A stretch of 64,000 nt of DNA from NCBI RefSeq assembly GCF_055900595.2, contig NZ_CM148325.1. One strand, 5' to 3'. Below, piece after piece: positions 12,922 to 55,058 of this stretch (its first letter is position 1; each line of letters starts with the position of its first letter). The notes under the pieces are model-generated. The model was not told the DNA's origin. It was given only the letters and a program-made list of their open reading frames with translations, and did no database searches. A program made the translations under genes and the position numbers.

Positions 12922-13989
12922 TTAGCCGTTCAGACCTAAACGCTCACCCTGATAGCTGCCGTCCTGCACCTGCTTCCACCAGCTTTCATTAGCCAGATAC
13001 CACTGCACTGTTTTACGCATTCCACTTTCAAAGGTTTCCTGCGGCAGCCAGCCAAGTTCACGGGCAATTTTCGAAGCATCAATGGCATAGCGTAGGTCAT
13101 GCCCTGGACGGTCAGCGACAAAGGTAATCAGATCGCGATAGTGCGCCACACCGTGCGATTTATTCGGGGCCAGTTCTTCCAGCAGCTCGCAGATGGTTTC
13201 CACAACCTCGAGATTCTTACGCTCGTTGTGACCACCAATATTATAGGTTTCACCGACTTTCCCGGTGGTCACCACGCAATACAGCGCGCGGGCATGATCT
13301 TCAACATATAACCAGTCACGGATTTGCTGCCCATTGCCATATACCGGCAGCGGTTTACCCGCCAGCGCGTTGAGGATCATCAGCGGGATCAGTTTTTCCG
13401 GAAAGTGGTAAGGACCGTAGTTATTAGAGCAGTTGGTGATTAACGTCGGCAGGCCGTAGGTCCGCAGCCAGGCGCGCACCAGATGGTCGCTGCTTGCTTT
13501 TGAAGCAGAATAAGGGCTGCTCGGCGAATACGGCGTGGTTTCGGTAAAGAAATCATCTGTGGAATGCAGGTCACCGTATACTTCGTCGGTGGAGATATGA
13601 TGAAAACGGAACGCCGATTTTTTGTCTTCTGCCAGCGCATTCCAGTAAGCCCGCGCCGCTTCAAGCAGTGTATAAGTCCCGACAATGTTGGTTTCGATAA
13701 ACGCTGCCGGGCCGTCAATAGAACGGTCAACATGGCTTTCAGCTGCCAGATGCATAACGCAGTCTGGCTGATGTTCTGTGAAAATGCGCGCCAACTCTGC
13801 CCGATCGCAGATATCAACTTTCTCAAAGGCAAAGCGATCGCTTTGCGCGACTGGTGCCAACGACATCAGGTTTCCGGCGTAGGTCAGCTTATCGACCACC
13901 ACCACCGCATCGTTCGTCTCGTTGATGATATAACGCACCAGCGCCGAGCCAATAAACCCGGCACCGCCTGTTATCAGAATCTTTCTCAT
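12922..13989 (-). CDS. rffG: dTDP-glucose 4,6-dehydratase
   Basis: 355-aa ORF, Rossmann GGAGFIGS motif and SDR catalytic YxxxK; synteny. Confidence 0.95.
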
Positions 13990-15251: not shown

Positions 15252-16378
15252 AGTGATATCCGATTATTTTTTAACGCTTCCAGAATGCGAGAGCATGCCT
15301 GACCATCACCATACGGGTTATGGGCGCGGCTCATGGTTTGATATTCGTTTTCGTCTTTTAAAAGACGCGTCACTTCCTCGACGATTCGCTGCTTATCCGT
15401 GCCGACCAGACGTACCGTACCCGCCTTCACTGCTTCCGGACGTTCAGTGGTTTCACGCATCACCAGCACTGGTTTCCCCAGCGAAGGCGCTTCCTCCTGA
15501 ATGCCACCTGAATCGGTCAAAATCAGCCAGGCGTGGTTCATCAGCCAGACAAACGGTAAATACTCCTGGGGATCGATCAGAATGACATTTTTCACGTGCC
15601 CCAGAATGCGATTGACCGGCTCTCTGACGTTCGGGTTGAGATGCACCGGATAGACAATCTGAATGTCCTGGTGAGTGGTGGCGATGTCTGCCAGCGCATG
15701 GCAGATTTCTTCAAAGCCACGACCAAAACTCTCACGTCTGTGACCGGTCACCAGAATCATTTTTTTATCAGGGTCGATAAACGGATAATTTGCCGCCAGT
15801 TCTGAACGCAGCGTATCGCTGCTCATCACCTGGTCACGCACCCATAACAGTGCATCAATAACGGTATTACCGGTAATGAAGATTCGGCTGTCAGCAACGT
15901 TTTCACGCAGCAAGTTTTGCCGGGAAGTTTCGGTTGGAGAGAAGTGATACATCGCCAGATGCCCGGTCAATGTACGGTTAGCCTCTTCCGGCCACGGCGA
16001 ATAGAGATCGCCCGTGCGCAGACCAGCCTCAACGTGACCAACAGGAATACGCTGATAAAACGCCGCCAGGCTGGTTGCCAGCGTCGTCGTCGTATCGCCG
16101 TGAACCAGCACGACGTCTGGTTTGAACTCGGCAAGAATAGGTTTTAGCCCTTCCAGAATCCGACAGGTTATCTCTGTCAGACCCTGTCCTGGCTGCATTA
16201 TGTTGAGATCGTAGTCAGGTACAATGGAAAAGAGTTTCAGCACCTGATCGAGCATCTCCCGATGCTGCGCAGTGACGCAAACTTTAGCCTCAAAAAAAGG
16301 ATCTTTTGCCAACGCATGCACCAACGGCGCCATCTTGATGGCTTCCGGGCGCGTACCAAATACAGTCAGTACTTTCAC
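15248..16378 (-). CDS. wecB: UDP-N-acetylglucosamine 2-epimerase
   Basis: Epimerase-family ORF; the track ORF (390 aa) is N-extended, start placed at GTG giving [20 protein letters not shown] (376 aa) as in K-12. Confidence 0.9.
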
Positions 16379-45761: not shown

Positions 45762-47189
45762 ATGAGCGATAAAAAGAAGCGCAGTATGGCGGGTTTGCCG
45801 TGGATCGCGGCGATGGCCTTCTTCATGCAGGCACTTGATGCCACTATTCTGAATACCGCCTTACCCGCAATCGCTCATAGCCTTAATCGTTCTCCTCTCG
45901 CGATGCAATCAGCCATCATCAGTTACACGCTGACGGTGGCGATGCTTATTCCGGTAAGCGGATGGCTAGCCGATCGCTTCGGTACGCGTCGCATATTTAC
46001 CCTTGCCGTGAGTCTGTTCACATTGGGTTCTCTGGCCTGCGCACTTTCTAACTCGCTACCACAGCTGGTTGTCTTCCGGGTTATTCAGGGGATAGGTGGC
46101 GCAATGATGATGCCTGTTGCTCGGCTGGCCTTACTGCGTGCTTATCCTCGTAATGAGCTTCTTCCTGTATTGAATTTTGTCGCCATGCCGGGTCTGGTGG
46201 GGCCAATTTTAGGCCCCGTACTTGGCGGCGTGCTGGTCACCTGGGCAACCTGGCACTGGATATTTTTAATCAATATCCCCATAGGTATTGCCGGCCTTCT
46301 TTACGCGCGCAAACATATGCCCAATTTCACCACCGCACGACGCAGATTCGATATCACTGGCTTTTTGCTGTTTGGCCTCAGCCTTGTTCTCTTCTCAAGC
46401 GGAATAGAGCTCTTCGGTGAAAAGATTGTCGCCAGTTGGATTGCCTTGACGGTAATTGTCACCAGCATCGGGTTACTGCTTCTCTATATTCTCCATGCAC
46501 GACGCACGCTAAACCCATTAATTTCATTAGATTTATTTAAAACCCGCACTTTCTCGATCGGTATAGTAGGCAATATTGCAACCCGTCTGGGGACCGGCTG
46601 TGTACCGTTCCTTATGCCATTGATGTTACAGGTAGGATTTGGTTATCAGGCGTTTATTGCCGGCTGTATGATGGCACCGACAGCGTTAGGTTCCATTATT
46701 GCAAAATCGATGGTTACCCAAGTCTTACGTCGTCTGGGCTATCGCCATACGTTAGTGGGGATCACGGTAATTATTGGGCTAATGATCGCTCAGTTCTCTT
46801 TGCAATCACCAGCAATGGCGATATGGATGCTGATCTTGCCGTTGTTTATATTAGGGATGGCTATGTCGACGCAATTTACCGCGATGAATACCATCACACT
46901 TGCCGATCTGACCGATGACAACGCCAGCAGCGGTAACAGTGTTCTGGCGGTCACGCAGCAACTGTCTATCAGTTTAGGCGTTGCTGTAAGTGCGGCCGTC
47001 CTTCGCGTTTATGAAGGGATGGAAGGCACAACGACTGTCGAACAATTCCACTATACGTTTATCACAATGGGCATTATTACTGTTGCTTCAGCAGCAATGT
47101 TCATGCTTCTGAAAACAACCGATGGTAATAATTTGATCAAAAGACAGCGTAAATCTAAGCCGAACCGCGTTCCATCAGAATCGGAGTAA
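45762..47189 (+). CDS. hsrA: MFS transporter (putative multidrug efflux, HsrA/YieO)
   Basis: 475-aa ORF with ~14 hydrophobic segments, DHA2-type MFS organisation. Confidence 0.9.
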
Positions 47190-48147
47190 GTTGTAATCGT
47201 TGTTGCTGAAGGGTCGGTTGGGTTATCCGATGGATGAGTACATCAATCGCCAGCTCCCCCAGTTCATCTTTCGGTTGATGGATAGTGGTTAATGGTGGCG
47301 TCATAAAGCTTGCCAGTTCGATATCGTCATAGCCAATCACCGCGATATCCTGCGGAACCTGTAACTCTGCCTGATATAGCGCCTGGTAAACGCCAACAGC
47401 CATAGCGTCATTTCCGGTAAAGACGGCCTGAGGACGCAGCGGATGTGATAACAGTTGGCGCATAGCGTCAAACCCGCCGTTAAATTCAAAATCACCAGTG
47501 ACTTCATAGCCATCAGGAATGTTGAGACCCGCACGTTTCATCGCCGCCCGATAACCTTCCAACCGCAGGCGCGCCGGAGTTTTATCCAGCGGGCCGGTAA
47601 TACAGGCGATACGGGTATGACCTTTATCGATCAGATATTGCGTTGCTAAGTCTCCGCCCAGCAACGAATTATCCTGAATGAGATCGCTGTCGCCATCGAA
47701 TGGTGCCCAGTCCATCATCACGGTAGGCACTGTCGGATAACGTTGCATGATTTCACGCGAAGGCTGATGCGTTTCGGTGCACAGTAACAGCAAGCCATCA
47801 ACGCGCTTTTGCATCAGCGTTTCCAGATTACGATTCATCCGCTGCTCATCGCCTTCGGTATTGCAAAGAACAAGACTATAGCCGCGCTCGAAGCAGCTGC
47901 GTTCAACGCCACGCACCAGTTCAGAATAAAAAGGATTGGTACTGGCAGTAATCAACATGCCAATGGTTCGAGTCTGATTGAGCTTGAGGCTACGCGCCAG
48001 AGCTGATGGCGCGTAATTGAGTTCTTTAATTGCCGCTTCAACTTTGGCAGTAATCGCTTCACTGACGAAGCGATCTTTATTGATGACGTGAGAAACTGTT
48101 GAGGTAGAAACGCCCGCCAGGCGGGCAACATCTTTCATTGTAGCCAA
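47155..48147 (-). CDS. rbsR: ribose operon repressor (LacI family)
   Basis: 330-aa ORF with LacI-type HTH ([33 protein letters not shown]) and periplasmic-binding-like core; last gene of rbsDACBKR. Confidence 0.95.
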
Positions 48148-48150
48148 GCG

Positions 48151-49080
48151 TCACCTCTGCCTGTCTAAAAATGCGTCGATCTCTTCACGCCATGGAACGG
48201 AAGGTTGTGCGCCTTTGCGCGTTACAGCAATCGCTGCGGCGGCATGAGCAAAACGAATCGCCTCCGGCAACGGTTTTTCTTCCAGCAACGCCGTGATTAA
48301 CGCGCCGTTAAAAGTATCTCCGGCAGCAATGGTATCGACAGCCTGCACCCGGAATCCAGGAACGCGCTGACCTTCACCATTCACGCTAGCCCATACACCA
48401 CGACTTCCTAAAGTAATCAGTACAGTACGGATACCTTTTTCATGCAGTACCTGCGCCGCTTTCGCTGCATCTTCATCATTTTCAACACGAATATCGGTGA
48501 GCTTTTCTGCTTCCGTTTCGTTTGGCGTAATAATGTCCACCAGCGCCAGCAGTTCGTCAGGAAGTTCGCGAGCCGGAGCCGGGTTAAGCGCAACGATAGT
48601 CTTATTTTGATGGGCGATTTTCGCCGCTGCCATCACACTTTCGAGTGGTGATTCCAGCTGCATTAATAATGCCGATGCGTTAGCAATACGCTCACGTTGC
48701 GCCTCCACCAGCGCAGGGGAAAGGGCTGCGTTAGCGCCGGCATGAATACCAATGACATTCTCACCTTCGCCATTAACAAAAATCAGCGCCACACCTGTTG
48801 ATTCGCCTTTGATCACGCTCACCGGAGAAATATCGATGTTATCAGTGGCGAGCTGCTGGCGAACGCTCTCACCAATGCTGTCATCACCCGTACAGGCAAT
48901 AAACGCGATATTCGCACCGCTACGCCCTGCAGCCACAGCCTGATTCGCGCCTTTGCCGCCAAATGCAACCTGATAGTGGTTACCGGTTACGGTTTCGCCT
49001 GGAGTAGGAAAAGATTGAAGATTAAGAATGTGGTCAGCATTAATGCTGCCAAGAACAACGAGGCTGCCTGCGTTTTGCAT
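48151..49080 (-). CDS. rbsK: ribokinase
   Basis: PfkB-family ORF; start placed at MQNAGSLVVLGSINADHILN (309 aa); the track ORF is 9 codons longer. Confidence 0.9.
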   Translation of the reverse strand: MQNAGSLVVLGSINADHILNLQSFPTPGETVTGNHYQVAFGGKGANQAVAAGRSGANIAFIACTGDDSIGESVRQQLATDNIDISPVSVIKGESTGVALIFVNGEGENVIGIHAGANAALSPALVEAQRERIANASALLMQLESPLESVMAAAKIAHQNKTIVALNPAPARELPDELLALVDIITPNETEAEKLTDIRVENDEDAAKAAQVLHEKGIRTVLITLGSRGVWASVNGEGQRVPGFRVQAVDTIAAGDTFNGALITALLEEKPLPEAIRFAHAAAAIAVTRKGAQPSVPWREEIDAFLDRQR

Positions 49081-49205
49081 ATTCGGGATGTCCATAAAAT
49101 GCGCCACCGTGTTAGGGTGGCGCGTGCCCTGCTTTTCTTTATTTTACACGTTCATCTGTCGATGACGTATTTATGTCACCATCAGGTCATACAACCTGAT
49201 TAAAA

Positions 49206-51090: not shown

Positions 51091-52596
51091 TTACTCCTGA
51101 TTCACGCGATTAAGCTTGCCCACAGCGGCAGCCATTAACACTTCCTGGGTGGCCCGCTCACGAGTAAATTCCCCGCTGAGATGCCCTTCATGCATGACGA
51201 TGATGCGATCGCTCATGCCTAATACTTCTGGCATCTCCGATGACACCAGAATGATGCTCAAGCCATCGGCTTTGAACTGGTTAATCAGTTGATAGATCTC
51301 TTTTTTCGCACCAACATCTACGCCACGGGTAGGTTCATCAAGAATCAACACTTTGGGGCGTGTCATCAGTCCACGGGCAATCGCCACTTTTTGCTGATTG
51401 CCACCGGAGAGCAAACCAATTGCCTGTTCCATCGACGGCGTTTTCACATTAAACAGACGAATAAAATCACTCACTGCCTGCTGTTCATCGGCATGCTTCA
51501 AACTGCCGCCAGTACGGCTAAAGTAACGCAGCGCAGTCAGCGACATATTCTCTTTGACTGACATACCCAGCACTAAACCGTCACGTTTGCGGTCTTCGGA
51601 GATATACACAATGCCGTTTGCCAGGCCATCCTGCGGTGAACGGGTAACGACTTCATGCCCATCCAGAGTGACGTAACCGCTGGTACGCGGCAGTGCGCCG
51701 TAGAGCACTTTCATCAGTTCGGTACGCCCCGCGCCCATCAAACCAGAGACGCCAAGAATTTCACCTTTGCGTAAGGTAAATGAAACATCATTAACGCCAG
51801 GTCCGCAGAGATTATCGACTTTCAGGCGGATATCGCCCGGCGCTTTGTCCAGGTGTGGATATTGATCTTCCAGCTTGCGGCCCACCATCATCTCAATCAG
51901 CGAATCTTCGGTCAGTGATGCCACTTCGCGCTCAGCAATAAATTGCCCGTCACGAAAAACAGTAACGTCATCGCAAATTTCGAAGATTTCTTTCATGCGG
52001 TGGGAGATATAGACAATACCGCGGCCTTGCGATTTCAGCTCGCGGATGACGCGGAACAGGGATTCGGTTTCGGTATCGGTCAGCGCATCGGTCGGTTCAT
52101 CCATAATGATGACTTTCGACTCAAAGCTCAGCACTTTGGCGATTTCAACCATTTGCTGGTCACCGATGGAAAGATCGCCCACCAGCTTGTCACTTTTAAA
52201 ACGCAGGTTAAGTTTAGCCAGCAATTTATCCGCTTCGGCATACATGGTTTTCCAGTCAATTTTGCCAAAGCGATTAACAAACTCACGACCGAGGAAAATG
52301 TTTTCGGCAATGGTTAACTGCGGGATCAGGTTCAGTTCCTGATGGATGATTCCAATGCCGGCTTCCTGGGAGGATTTCGGCCCGGTAAACGTTGTTTCTT
52401 TCCCCAGCCATAAAAGCGTACCGGCATCACGCGTATAGATACCAGTAAGCACTTTCATCATGGTGGATTTACCCGCGCCGTTTTCACCCACCAGCGCCAT
52501 TACACGCCCCGGATAGACATTTAACGCGGCGCCCGAGAGGGCTTTTACGCCCGGAAAGGCTTTATCAATGCCTTTAAGCTGTAGTAATGCTTCCAT
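51091..52596 (-). CDS. rbsA: ribose ABC transporter ATP-binding protein (two fused ABC domains)
   Basis: 501-aa ORF with Walker [10 protein letters not shown] and duplicated ABC signature/Walker B regions. Confidence 0.95.
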
Positions 52597-52603
52597 GACG
52601 GCC

Positions 52604-53023
52604 TCAGAACGTCACGCCAGCACAGAGAATGATATTCGCATACGGAGAACATTCTCCGCTGCGAATTACCGCCTGACTTTCTGCGGTTTGTTGTTTGAAT
52701 TGTTCATGCGTGGTGTAACGAATTTCAATGGTATTTCCCTGGTGTTTTTGCAGCTGCTCAAGGTGAGTGAGCAACGTTTCGTGGAGTTGCGGATTATGTT
52801 GTTTGATCTCTTCCGCGATAATGGCAGCCTCGACCTGCATTTCATTTGTGACGACGCCCAGCACCTGCATAAAAGAAGGTACACCCTGGGTTAATGCCAT
52901 ATCGATACGCGTTGTACTTTTGGGGATGGGTAAACCAGCATCACACACCACCAACGTATCGGTATGTCCCAGACGGGAGATCACCGAAGAAATATCAGAA
53001 TTAAGAACGGTGCCTTTTTTCAT
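52604..53023 (-). CDS. rbsD: D-ribose pyranase
   Basis: Start placed at [22 protein letters not shown] (139 aa). Confidence 0.9.
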
Positions 53024-53035
53024 TTTTTTCTCCAT

Positions 53036-53053
53036 CAGCGAAACGTTTCGCTG
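53036..53053. promoter_or_regulatory. candidate RbsR operator (perfect 18-bp palindrome)
   Basis: cagcgaaacgtttcgctg is a perfect inverted repeat of the LacI/PurR-family half-site type, 13 bp upstream of the rbsD start codon. Confidence 0.5.
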
Positions 53054-53145
53054 ACCCGCAGTTTAATCCTGACTGAGTTGGGAAAACCATCGTGACGTTA
53101 CGGAAATGTGATCAACATCGAAACGTTTTACATGGTGATTAACCA

Positions 53146-53182
53146 TGAAAACAAAAACGCCCCCTTATGGAGAAAGGAGGCG
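53146..53182 (-). terminator. candidate terminator downstream of kup
   Basis: Minus-strand hairpin (acgcc...ggcgt) followed by ttttgtttt. Confidence 0.4.
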
Positions 53183-53189
53183 TCTGGCG

Positions 53190-55058
53190 TTAAATTTCGA
53201 CCTGAGTACCCAGTTCGATAACCCTGTTTGGCGGGATTTCAAATTGATCCGGTGCGCGCAGCGCATTACGTTGCAACAGCAAATACAGCTTGCCGCGCAA
53301 ACGCAAATACCACGGACGTTTGCCGAGGATCAGTGATTCATGCGACATAAAGAAGGAGGTTTCCATCATCCGGCAACTTAACCCTTCCAGACCACAGCGG
53401 TGGAAAACTTCTTCCACGTTTGGCGTTTCCCGCCATCCATAACTTGCCACCACGCGCCAGAAAGTGGACGACAGTTGTTCAATCTGTACCCGACGGACGT
53501 TATGGACATATGGCGCGTCTTCAGTGCGCAGAGTTAACAGAATCACCCGCTCATGCAACACCTTGTTATGTTTCAGGTTATGCATCAGTGCAAAGGGAAT
53601 GACGTTGATTGCACGCGACATATACACCGCGGTCCCTGGCACGCGAACGGGCGGTGATTTCTCCAGCGAAGCAATCATCGCTTCCAGAGAGTTGCCATGT
53701 TCATGCATCCGCCGCAGCAAGCGGAAACGCTCGCTCTTCCAGGTAGTCATCACGATAAACATTACCGTACCGAGACTCAGTGGCAACCAGCCGCCGGAGA
53801 GCAGTTTATCGAGGTTAGCGGTGAACAATGGAATATCAACACAAAGGAAAGCAATCAGGATCAGCGCAACAAAATACTTATTCCAGTGCCAGTTCTGACG
53901 TGCCACAGTAGTTGAGAGAATAGACGTCAGTACCATGGTTCCGGTCACCGCAATCCCGTACGCCGCCGCCAGGTTGCTGGAGTGCTCAAAGCTGACAATC
54001 ACAATCACGACCGCGACATAGAGCATCCAGTTCACAAACGGAATATAGATTTGCCCTGACTCCATTTCGGAGGTGTGAATAATGCGCATCGGCGACAAAT
54101 ATCCCAGACGTACCGCCTGACGCGTCAATGAGAAGACGCCAGAAATAACCGCCTGCGAGGCAATTACCGTCGCCAGTGCGGCGATGATCAGCAGCGGGAT
54201 CAGCGCCCAGTCCGGTGCCAACAGGAAGAACGGGTTCTTAATTGCTTCCGGGTTCTTTAACAACAGAGCGCCCTGGCCAAAGTAATTAAGAGTTAATGAA
54301 GGCAATACGACGGTGAACCACACCAGGCGAATCGGGAACTTACCAAAGTGCCCCATATCAGCGTACAGCGCCTCGACACCGGTAATCGACAGCACCACTG
54401 CCCCTAACGCAATAAACGAAACCGTTTTATATTCAAGGAAGAAATGCACCGCCCACATCGGATTCAACGCATGCAGTACTTCCGGGTTAGCAATAATGCT
54501 ACGCACCCCCAGTCCCGCCAGAATCAAAAACCAGGTCAGCATGATAGGCGCAAACAGCTTACCGACCATAGCAGTGCCATGTTTTTGAATCATAAATAGT
54601 AAAGTCAGAACGATGATTGAGAGGGGAACTATCCAGGTATCCAGCTGCGGAGCGACGATTTCCAGACCTTCAATGGCAGACATCACCGAAATAGCGGGTG
54701 TTATGACGACTTCACCATAGAAAAAGCTGCCGCCGATTAGCCCCATAATAACCAGCATTGATGTCGTTCGCGCCGACGTATTACGCCCGGCAAGCGACAT
54801 CAACGTCAGAATGCCCCCTTCCCCGGCGTTATCTGCCCGCATCACGAAGGTGAGATATTTAATGGAAACCACAAAGATTAGCAGCCAGAAGATCAGCGAT
54901 AAAAAGCCAAACACGGCATCGCGTTCAACGCCAAAACCAAACTGGCCGGACAAACATTCACGAAGTGTATATAACGGGCTGGTACCAATATCGCCGTAGA
55001 CAACTCCAATCGCCGCGAGGGTAATCGCGGGCAACGATTGCTTATTATCAGTGCTCAT
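53190..55058 (-). CDS. kup: low-affinity K+ uptake transporter (KUP family)
   Basis: 622-aa [35 protein letters not shown]... with 12 TM N-terminal domain and cytoplasmic C-terminal domain. Confidence 0.97.

Follow-up and report, generated by a model that had tools for sequence, protein, structure and literature searches.

The 166-bp spacer between kup and rbsD, which occupied exactly positions 53024..53189 of the window (the whole 64,000-nucleotide stretch of DNA analyzed here), is almost certainly the control region of the E. coli rbsDACBKR operon, with an RbsR operator at the start of transcription and a CRP activator site upstream of it. Both elements are already known, as E. coli rbsO and the CRP site of rbsD, and nothing in them is new. 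What this analysis itself established is the identity of the sequence, its position and conservation, and that rbsR is present.

The features of the locus are listed in Table 1; rbsDACBKR was located on the minus strand. The stretch 52500..53700 matched several RefSeq E. coli chromosomes at 100% identity and was present in 5,411 of 5,426 complete genomes, where it was annotated as kup, rbsD, and rbsA. Comparison of the window with K-12 MG1655 over 201 nt revealed four differences, none of them in the dyad of the operator: at the 3' end of kup, in the loop of the kup terminator, within the CRP-site spacer, and at a base 4 nt upstream of the palindrome. The difference in the CRP spacer was T for G at 53117, and the one next to the palindrome was C for T at 53058, in the discriminator between the -10 hexamer and +1 (GCGGG in the window, GTGGG in K-12); neither affected a recognized contact base. 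The rbsR ORF scored 697 bits against the NCBIfam RbsR equivalog NF007743 (cutoff 531), and its product was nearly identical to the "Ribose operon repressor" of PDB 9ny7/9ny8 (E = 8e-220). rbsD is annotated as starting, on the minus strand, with the ATG at 53023..53021. Another ATG in the same frame, at 53035..53033 and 12 nt farther upstream, overlapped the end of the palindrome and gave a mechanical ORF of 143 aa (MEKKMKKG...); this longer ORF is probably not used, because the GGAG at 53033..53030 is the Shine-Dalgarno sequence of the annotated start codon at 53023. At the other end of the spacer, a G+C-rich hairpin followed by a T-run, the characteristics of a rho-independent terminator, began 4 nt past the kup TAA. 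Its fold had a free energy of -19.5 kcal/mol (z = -3.0), and none of 200 shuffles was as stable. This terminator insulates the rbs promoter against read-through from kup.

Table 1. Features of the kup–rbsD control region and the neighboring genes (positions are those of the window; +1 is the proposed transcription start)
Feature	Coordinates	Strand	Sequence or structure	Remarks
kup ORF	53190..55058	minus		Stop TAA at 53192..53190
kup intrinsic terminator	53145..53185	minus	12-bp G+C-rich stem (53185..53155), 7-nt loop, then T-tract
Distal RbsR-like dyad O2	53117..53132		TGTAAAACGTTTCGAT on the minus strand	Center 53124.5; 12/16 match to the perfect 16-mer
CRP site	53104..53125		22-mer CGTTTCGATGTTGATCACATTT on the minus strand; TGTGA-N6-TCGAA across 53104..53125	Center 53114.5 = -62.5
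Block in the -35 region	53083..53089	minus	TGGTTTT	>= 95% column conservation; poor TTGACA match
-10 hexamer	53060..53065	minus	TAAACT	-13..-8; TAnACT at a fixed offset from O1 in 81 sequences
Putative transcription start of rbsDACBKR	53052	minus	A	From the RegulonDB CRP center of -62.5 mapped to 53114.5; fits the -10-like hexamer 7 nt upstream
RbsR operator rbsO (O1)	53035..53054		Dyad TCAGCGAAACGTTTCGCTGA	20-bp perfect dyad, 10-nt arms, 100% complementary, no spacer
O1 conserved core	53037..53052		16-mer AGCGAAACGTTTCGCT	+1..+16, center +8.5; 16/16 match, central CG
Shine-Dalgarno sequence of rbsD	53030..53033	minus	GGAG	6 nt before the ATG; TGGAG conserved in the 81-sequence alignment
rbsD (D-ribose pyranase), first gene of rbsDACBKR	52604..53023	minus		NF008761 match, 222 bits
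rbsA, rbsC, rbsB		minus		ORFs; operon order D-A-C-B-K-R seen
rbsK	48151..49107	minus		ORF
rbsR (cognate LacI-family repressor), last gene of the operon	47155..48147	minus		Intact ORF; NF007743 match

A first-pass annotation of this DNA, made from the letters alone, had reported a perfect 18-bp palindrome, cagcgaaacgtttcgctg, at 53036..53053 and had placed it 13 bp upstream of the rbsD start. The palindrome was present as given, and the distance was right, with 12 nt (53024..53035) between the 18-mer and the ATG. Its perfect symmetry was likewise borne out; the length was not, since the dyad extends by one base more on each side to 20 bp, of which just 16 bp were conserved across genera. This O1 dyad lay at the promoter of the operon's first gene, rbsD, and preceded its ATG by 11–13 nt; TCAGCGAAACGTTTCGCTGA was the longest perfect palindrome in the window. 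Perfect palindromes of at least 20 bp were expected 0.065 times per window and were seen in 13 of 200 dinucleotide-preserving shuffles. Because the symmetry of O1 is by itself only modestly unlikely and thus no more than suggestive, its assignment as an operator rests on identity with a known operator and on conservation. The next longest perfect palindromes in the window were GCAAAGCGATCGCTTTGC (18 bp, 13829..13846) and CGTCTTTTAAAAGACG (16 bp, 15352..15367).

Mauzy and Hermodson reportedly described the RbsR operator rbsO of E. coli K-12 rbsDACBKR in 1992. RbsR has been co-crystallized with a 30-mer rbsO oligonucleotide, GTGGGTCAGCGAAACGTTTCGCTGATGGAG (bioRxiv 10.1101/2025.04.02.646877). When this oligonucleotide was compared with the minus strand of the window at 53059..53030, 29 of 30 bases were identical, including all 20 bases of the dyad, and the sole mismatch lay outside the dyad. 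The K-12 operator of PDB 9ny7/9ny8 thus has the same 20-bp dyad, the same position before rbsD, and the same operon and repressor gene as the one in the window; one flanking base and one CRP spacer base differ, and there is no functional difference. The literature on E. coli and Serratia describes RbsR as a LacI-family repressor of rbsDACBKR that binds the DNA upstream of rbsD until ribose releases it (PMC5601083; also PMC5934670). The proposal that the palindrome is an operator of the LacI-family type was therefore correct, as the palindrome is the RbsR operator and matches the crystallized rbsO oligonucleotide. It amounted to the rediscovery, from raw sequence, of a characterized site; operators of the LacI type can be recognized in this way, and the discovery value is little.

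Another LacI-family regulator, PurR or Cra (FruR), might in principle be the protein that the dyad serves. PurR, the closest paralogue of RbsR, has a related motif, but it needs a corepressor for binding, whereas RbsR is released by its ligand (PMC4052901). The window RbsR scored 407 bits against the PurR model, and the operators of the pur regulon are, like rbsO, even palindromes of 16 bp with a central CG, the core AAACGTTT being common to both. The arm bases differ, however: those of O1 are CGAAAC, the RbsR type, and not GCAAAC, which we take to be the PurR type. Furthermore, the promoter that carries the site is that of the ribose operon, in which RbsR itself is encoded, and the RbsR–rbsO structure uses exactly the same sequence. 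PurR or Cra as the binder was rejected on the arm sequence and the context, and we regard the chance of it as practically negligible.

To describe the conservation of the RbsR operator, we used an RbsD-anchored alignment of 80 loci from different Enterobacteriaceae species (RbsD identity of 86–99%), which together with the window gave 81 sequences. The 16-mer AGCGAAACGTTTCGCT was unchanged in 80 of the 81 rbsD upstream regions, with one change in the remaining one, and its distance to the rbsD ATG was always 11–20 nt. The spacer flanking the 16-mer had diverged, with a column identity of roughly 40–60%. The two outer pairs of the 20-bp dyad were symmetric in all six Escherichia sequences (the window and five others). 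Two Silvania loci kept the inner of these two pairs (…CGCTGG), and most other genera had …CGCTAG or …CGCTAA at the outer pairs. Because the two outer pairs lose their symmetry outside Escherichia, the conserved recognition unit is 16 bp. Further elements conserved in the 81 loci were TAnACT, TGGTTTT, GATCACA of the CRP site, and TGGAG.

Upstream of the operator, the first-pass annotation had recognized a CRP-like half site, tgtgatcaacatcga, at about 53103..53117. The motif exists, but it lies 4 bp away, at 53107..53121, and it belongs to a full site rather than a half site: the window sequence CGTTTCGAtgttgaTCACATTT at 53125..53104 resembles the 22-bp CRP consensus AAATGTGAtctagaTCACATTT, with 5/5 matches in the proximal pentamer TCACA (53111..53107) and 3/5 in the distal pentamer TTCGA (53122..53118). 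GATCACA of this site was invariant across genera. The associated suggestion of catabolite control agreed with the identity of the motif, which corresponds to the CRP activator site given for rbsDACBKR in RegulonDB, CGTTTCGAGGTTGATCACATTT, with one spacer base different (T for G). In the RegulonDB CRP sites as given in Table S4 of Shimada et al. 2011 (PMC3105977), rbsDACBKR has an activator site, ccatgtaaaaCGTTTCGAGGTTGATCACATTTccgtaacgtc, at location -62.5. In Table S3 of the same paper, rbsD is a database target without a SELEX-chip box sequence (PMC3105977), and we did not count it as independent binding evidence. In reporter data, rbsD promoter activity follows CRP activity and externally added cAMP (PMC4304618), and EcoCyc-derived tables give cAMP-CRP as the activator and RbsR as the repressor (PMC10100675).

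Because the center of the CRP site at 53114.5 corresponds to -62.5, +1 would be A 53052, with which the 16-mer begins, and the rbsD 5'UTR would comprise 29 nt (53052..53024). With +1 at this base of the core, the earlier expectation that a repressor on the palindrome would occlude the 5'UTR and the transcription start holds. A mapped transcription start was sought in the supplements of Kim 2012, from which rbsD was absent. A generic sigma-70 promoter scan of 52900..53300 called no promoter; this miss was not taken as absence, because the promoter is CRP-dependent and has a poor -35 element. The distance from the CRP center to the first base of the -10 hexamer was 49.5 bp, and the corresponding distance in lac P1 is also 49.5 bp. 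TAAACT was read as the -10 hexamer from its sequence, and TGGTTTT is a candidate for the -35 element. The slightly longer ATGGTTTTC (53082..53090 on the minus strand, about -38..-30) was at least 95% conserved in the 81 species despite its poor match to the -35 consensus, and it may be a -35 element or the region that alpha-CTD contacts in a CRP-dependent promoter; alternatively, another factor may bind there.

A transcription start at 53052 also places the whole 16-mer in the mRNA. The palindrome could then act mainly as RNA and not as an operator: folded into a hairpin at the 5' end of the rbsD leader, it would control translation or the stability of the mRNA. The leader indeed forms a 7-bp hairpin of -10.4 kcal/mol right before the Shine-Dalgarno sequence, and the rbsD mRNA is a known target and sponge of an sRNA, DsrA. 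The fold was unremarkable, however, with z = -1.7 and 14 of 200 shuffles folding at least as well, and the outer two pairs of the 20-mer were asymmetric in other genera. All 16 positions, including those of the loop, were invariant across 80 species with zero compensatory changes, which indicated base-specific recognition by a protein and not the maintenance of a stem; the identical dyad was, moreover, crystallized as DNA with RbsR. An Rfam scan of 52400..53400 (E <= 1) gave no match, and hence no riboswitch or known leader. We therefore rejected an RNA hairpin as the primary function, which the z of -1.7 and the conservation of sequence rather than pairing make very improbable; the hairpin is perhaps a by-product that has a slight stabilizing effect.

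The RbsR operator and the CRP site can be combined into a simple scheme of regulation, for which RbsR binding, its release by ribose, the CRP dependence, and the position of the CRP site were taken from the literature; the exact base of the transcription start, the steric mechanism, and class I action via alpha-CTD are what we infer. Without ribose, dimeric RbsR, encoded by the last gene of its own operon, would bind AGCGAAACGTTTCGCT at +1..+16. By analogy with LacI at lacO1, the bound repressor would block RNA polymerase, so that no productive complex would form or no promoter escape would occur. D-ribose would bind RbsR, which would then leave the DNA. The usable -10 hexamer (TAAACT) and the poor -35 element would make the promoter reliant on cAMP-CRP at -62.5, acting as a class I activator via alpha-CTD, and this would place the operon under catabolite control.

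With +1 at the putative base, this arrangement would have the logic and nearly the geometry of the lac control region (CRP at -61.5 and lacO1 at +11), which likewise has a class I CRP site approximately 62 bp upstream of +1 and a sugar-released LacI-family repressor on a palindrome on or just downstream of the start. rbsO differs from lacO1 in being even and perfectly symmetric; the additional base pair at the center of lacO1 is absent from it. RbsR, unlike LacI, has no tetramerization domain, and looping is therefore not expected for it.

The initial account of the control region as an operator and a CRP site was sound, but it had overlooked a second RbsR-like dyad, O2, overlapping the distal half of the CRP site. 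The center of O2 was 10 bp upstream of the CRP center and 80 bp from that of O1. Sites of this quality were seen 10 times in the window compared with 3.5 expected, and a 12/16 match is no better than chance elsewhere in the window. A close match to the RbsR palindrome at O2 was absent from the window and from Escherichia and was present in other genera: 71 of the 81 loci carried (A, T, or C)GCGAAACGTTTCGA(T or C), with one or two mismatches (14–15/16), whereas the outer half had decayed, with 4–5 mismatches, in each of the six Escherichia sequences, which came from E. coli, E. albertii, E. whittamii, and further clades. The offset between the O2 and CRP centers was exactly 10 bp in 81/81 loci, and the O2 and O1 centers were 78–80 bp apart. 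The conserved GCG of the outer half is not part of the 22-bp CRP site, so that CRP by itself does not account for O2. An inverted repeat, TTTTCATGGT-taatc-ACCATGTAAA (53127..53151; 10-nt arms, 90% complementary), was located between the T-tract of the kup terminator and the CRP site; it was seen in some Escherichia sequences only, in the place taken in other genera by the outer half of O2, and it may be due to chance.

Judged from the alignment, the upstream motif at 53104..53132 could be mainly a second RbsR operator, or a composite of RbsR and CRP sites with partial anti-activation, which we consider possible, if doubtful. The fixed 10-bp offset and the near-perfect O2 of the 71 loci are consistent with such a function, as is the GCG outside the CRP 22-mer, and the weak CRP pentamer TTCGA is what an RbsR arm dictates. 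The enterobacterial RbsR regulog of RegPrecise, with 17 sites in 11 regulons (PMC4052901 supplement), points in the same direction; given these counts, some second sites like O2 are probably already catalogued there. On the other hand, EcoCyc as of 2012 annotated a single RbsR operator at rbsD (PMC3505978). The decay of the outer half in the window and all Escherichia, and the excess of comparable matches in the window, argue against this function, and the invariant GATCACA and the RegulonDB assignment identify the site as a CRP activator site. Looping between O1 and O2 is also unlikely, as 78–80 bp do not make up a whole number of helical turns, so that the two centers are out of helical phase, and RbsR is a dimer.

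Operator-like sequences near CRP sites occur in other systems. lac O3 lies near the CRP site, as O2 does in rbs, and CytR–CRP and GalR at OE beside the gal CRP site are similar to O2 only in that a repressor site overlaps or adjoins a CRP site. Unlike the cooperative binding of CytR, the overlap of O2 and the CRP site would make binding mutually exclusive, and in E. coli O2 is degenerate.

The pattern of conservation suggests that in most Enterobacteriaceae RbsR may also compete with CRP and that Escherichia may have lost or weakened this second lock. A more specific scenario, which we consider unlikely, is that the ancestral enterobacterial rbs promoter carried O1 on the start and an O2 merged with the distal CRP half site, that RbsR would then have acted as a double lock, blocking polymerase and excluding CRP, and that Escherichia subsequently lost the outer half of O2. 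The conserved O2 is the one item of some residual value in this region; it hints at repressor–activator competition in most Enterobacteriaceae and at its decay in Escherichia. If the scenario is true, the decay of O2 in Escherichia would loosen the coupling of ribose repression to catabolite control; if O2 is functional and undescribed, it would represent a minor change, specific to one lineage, in the wiring of a textbook promoter.
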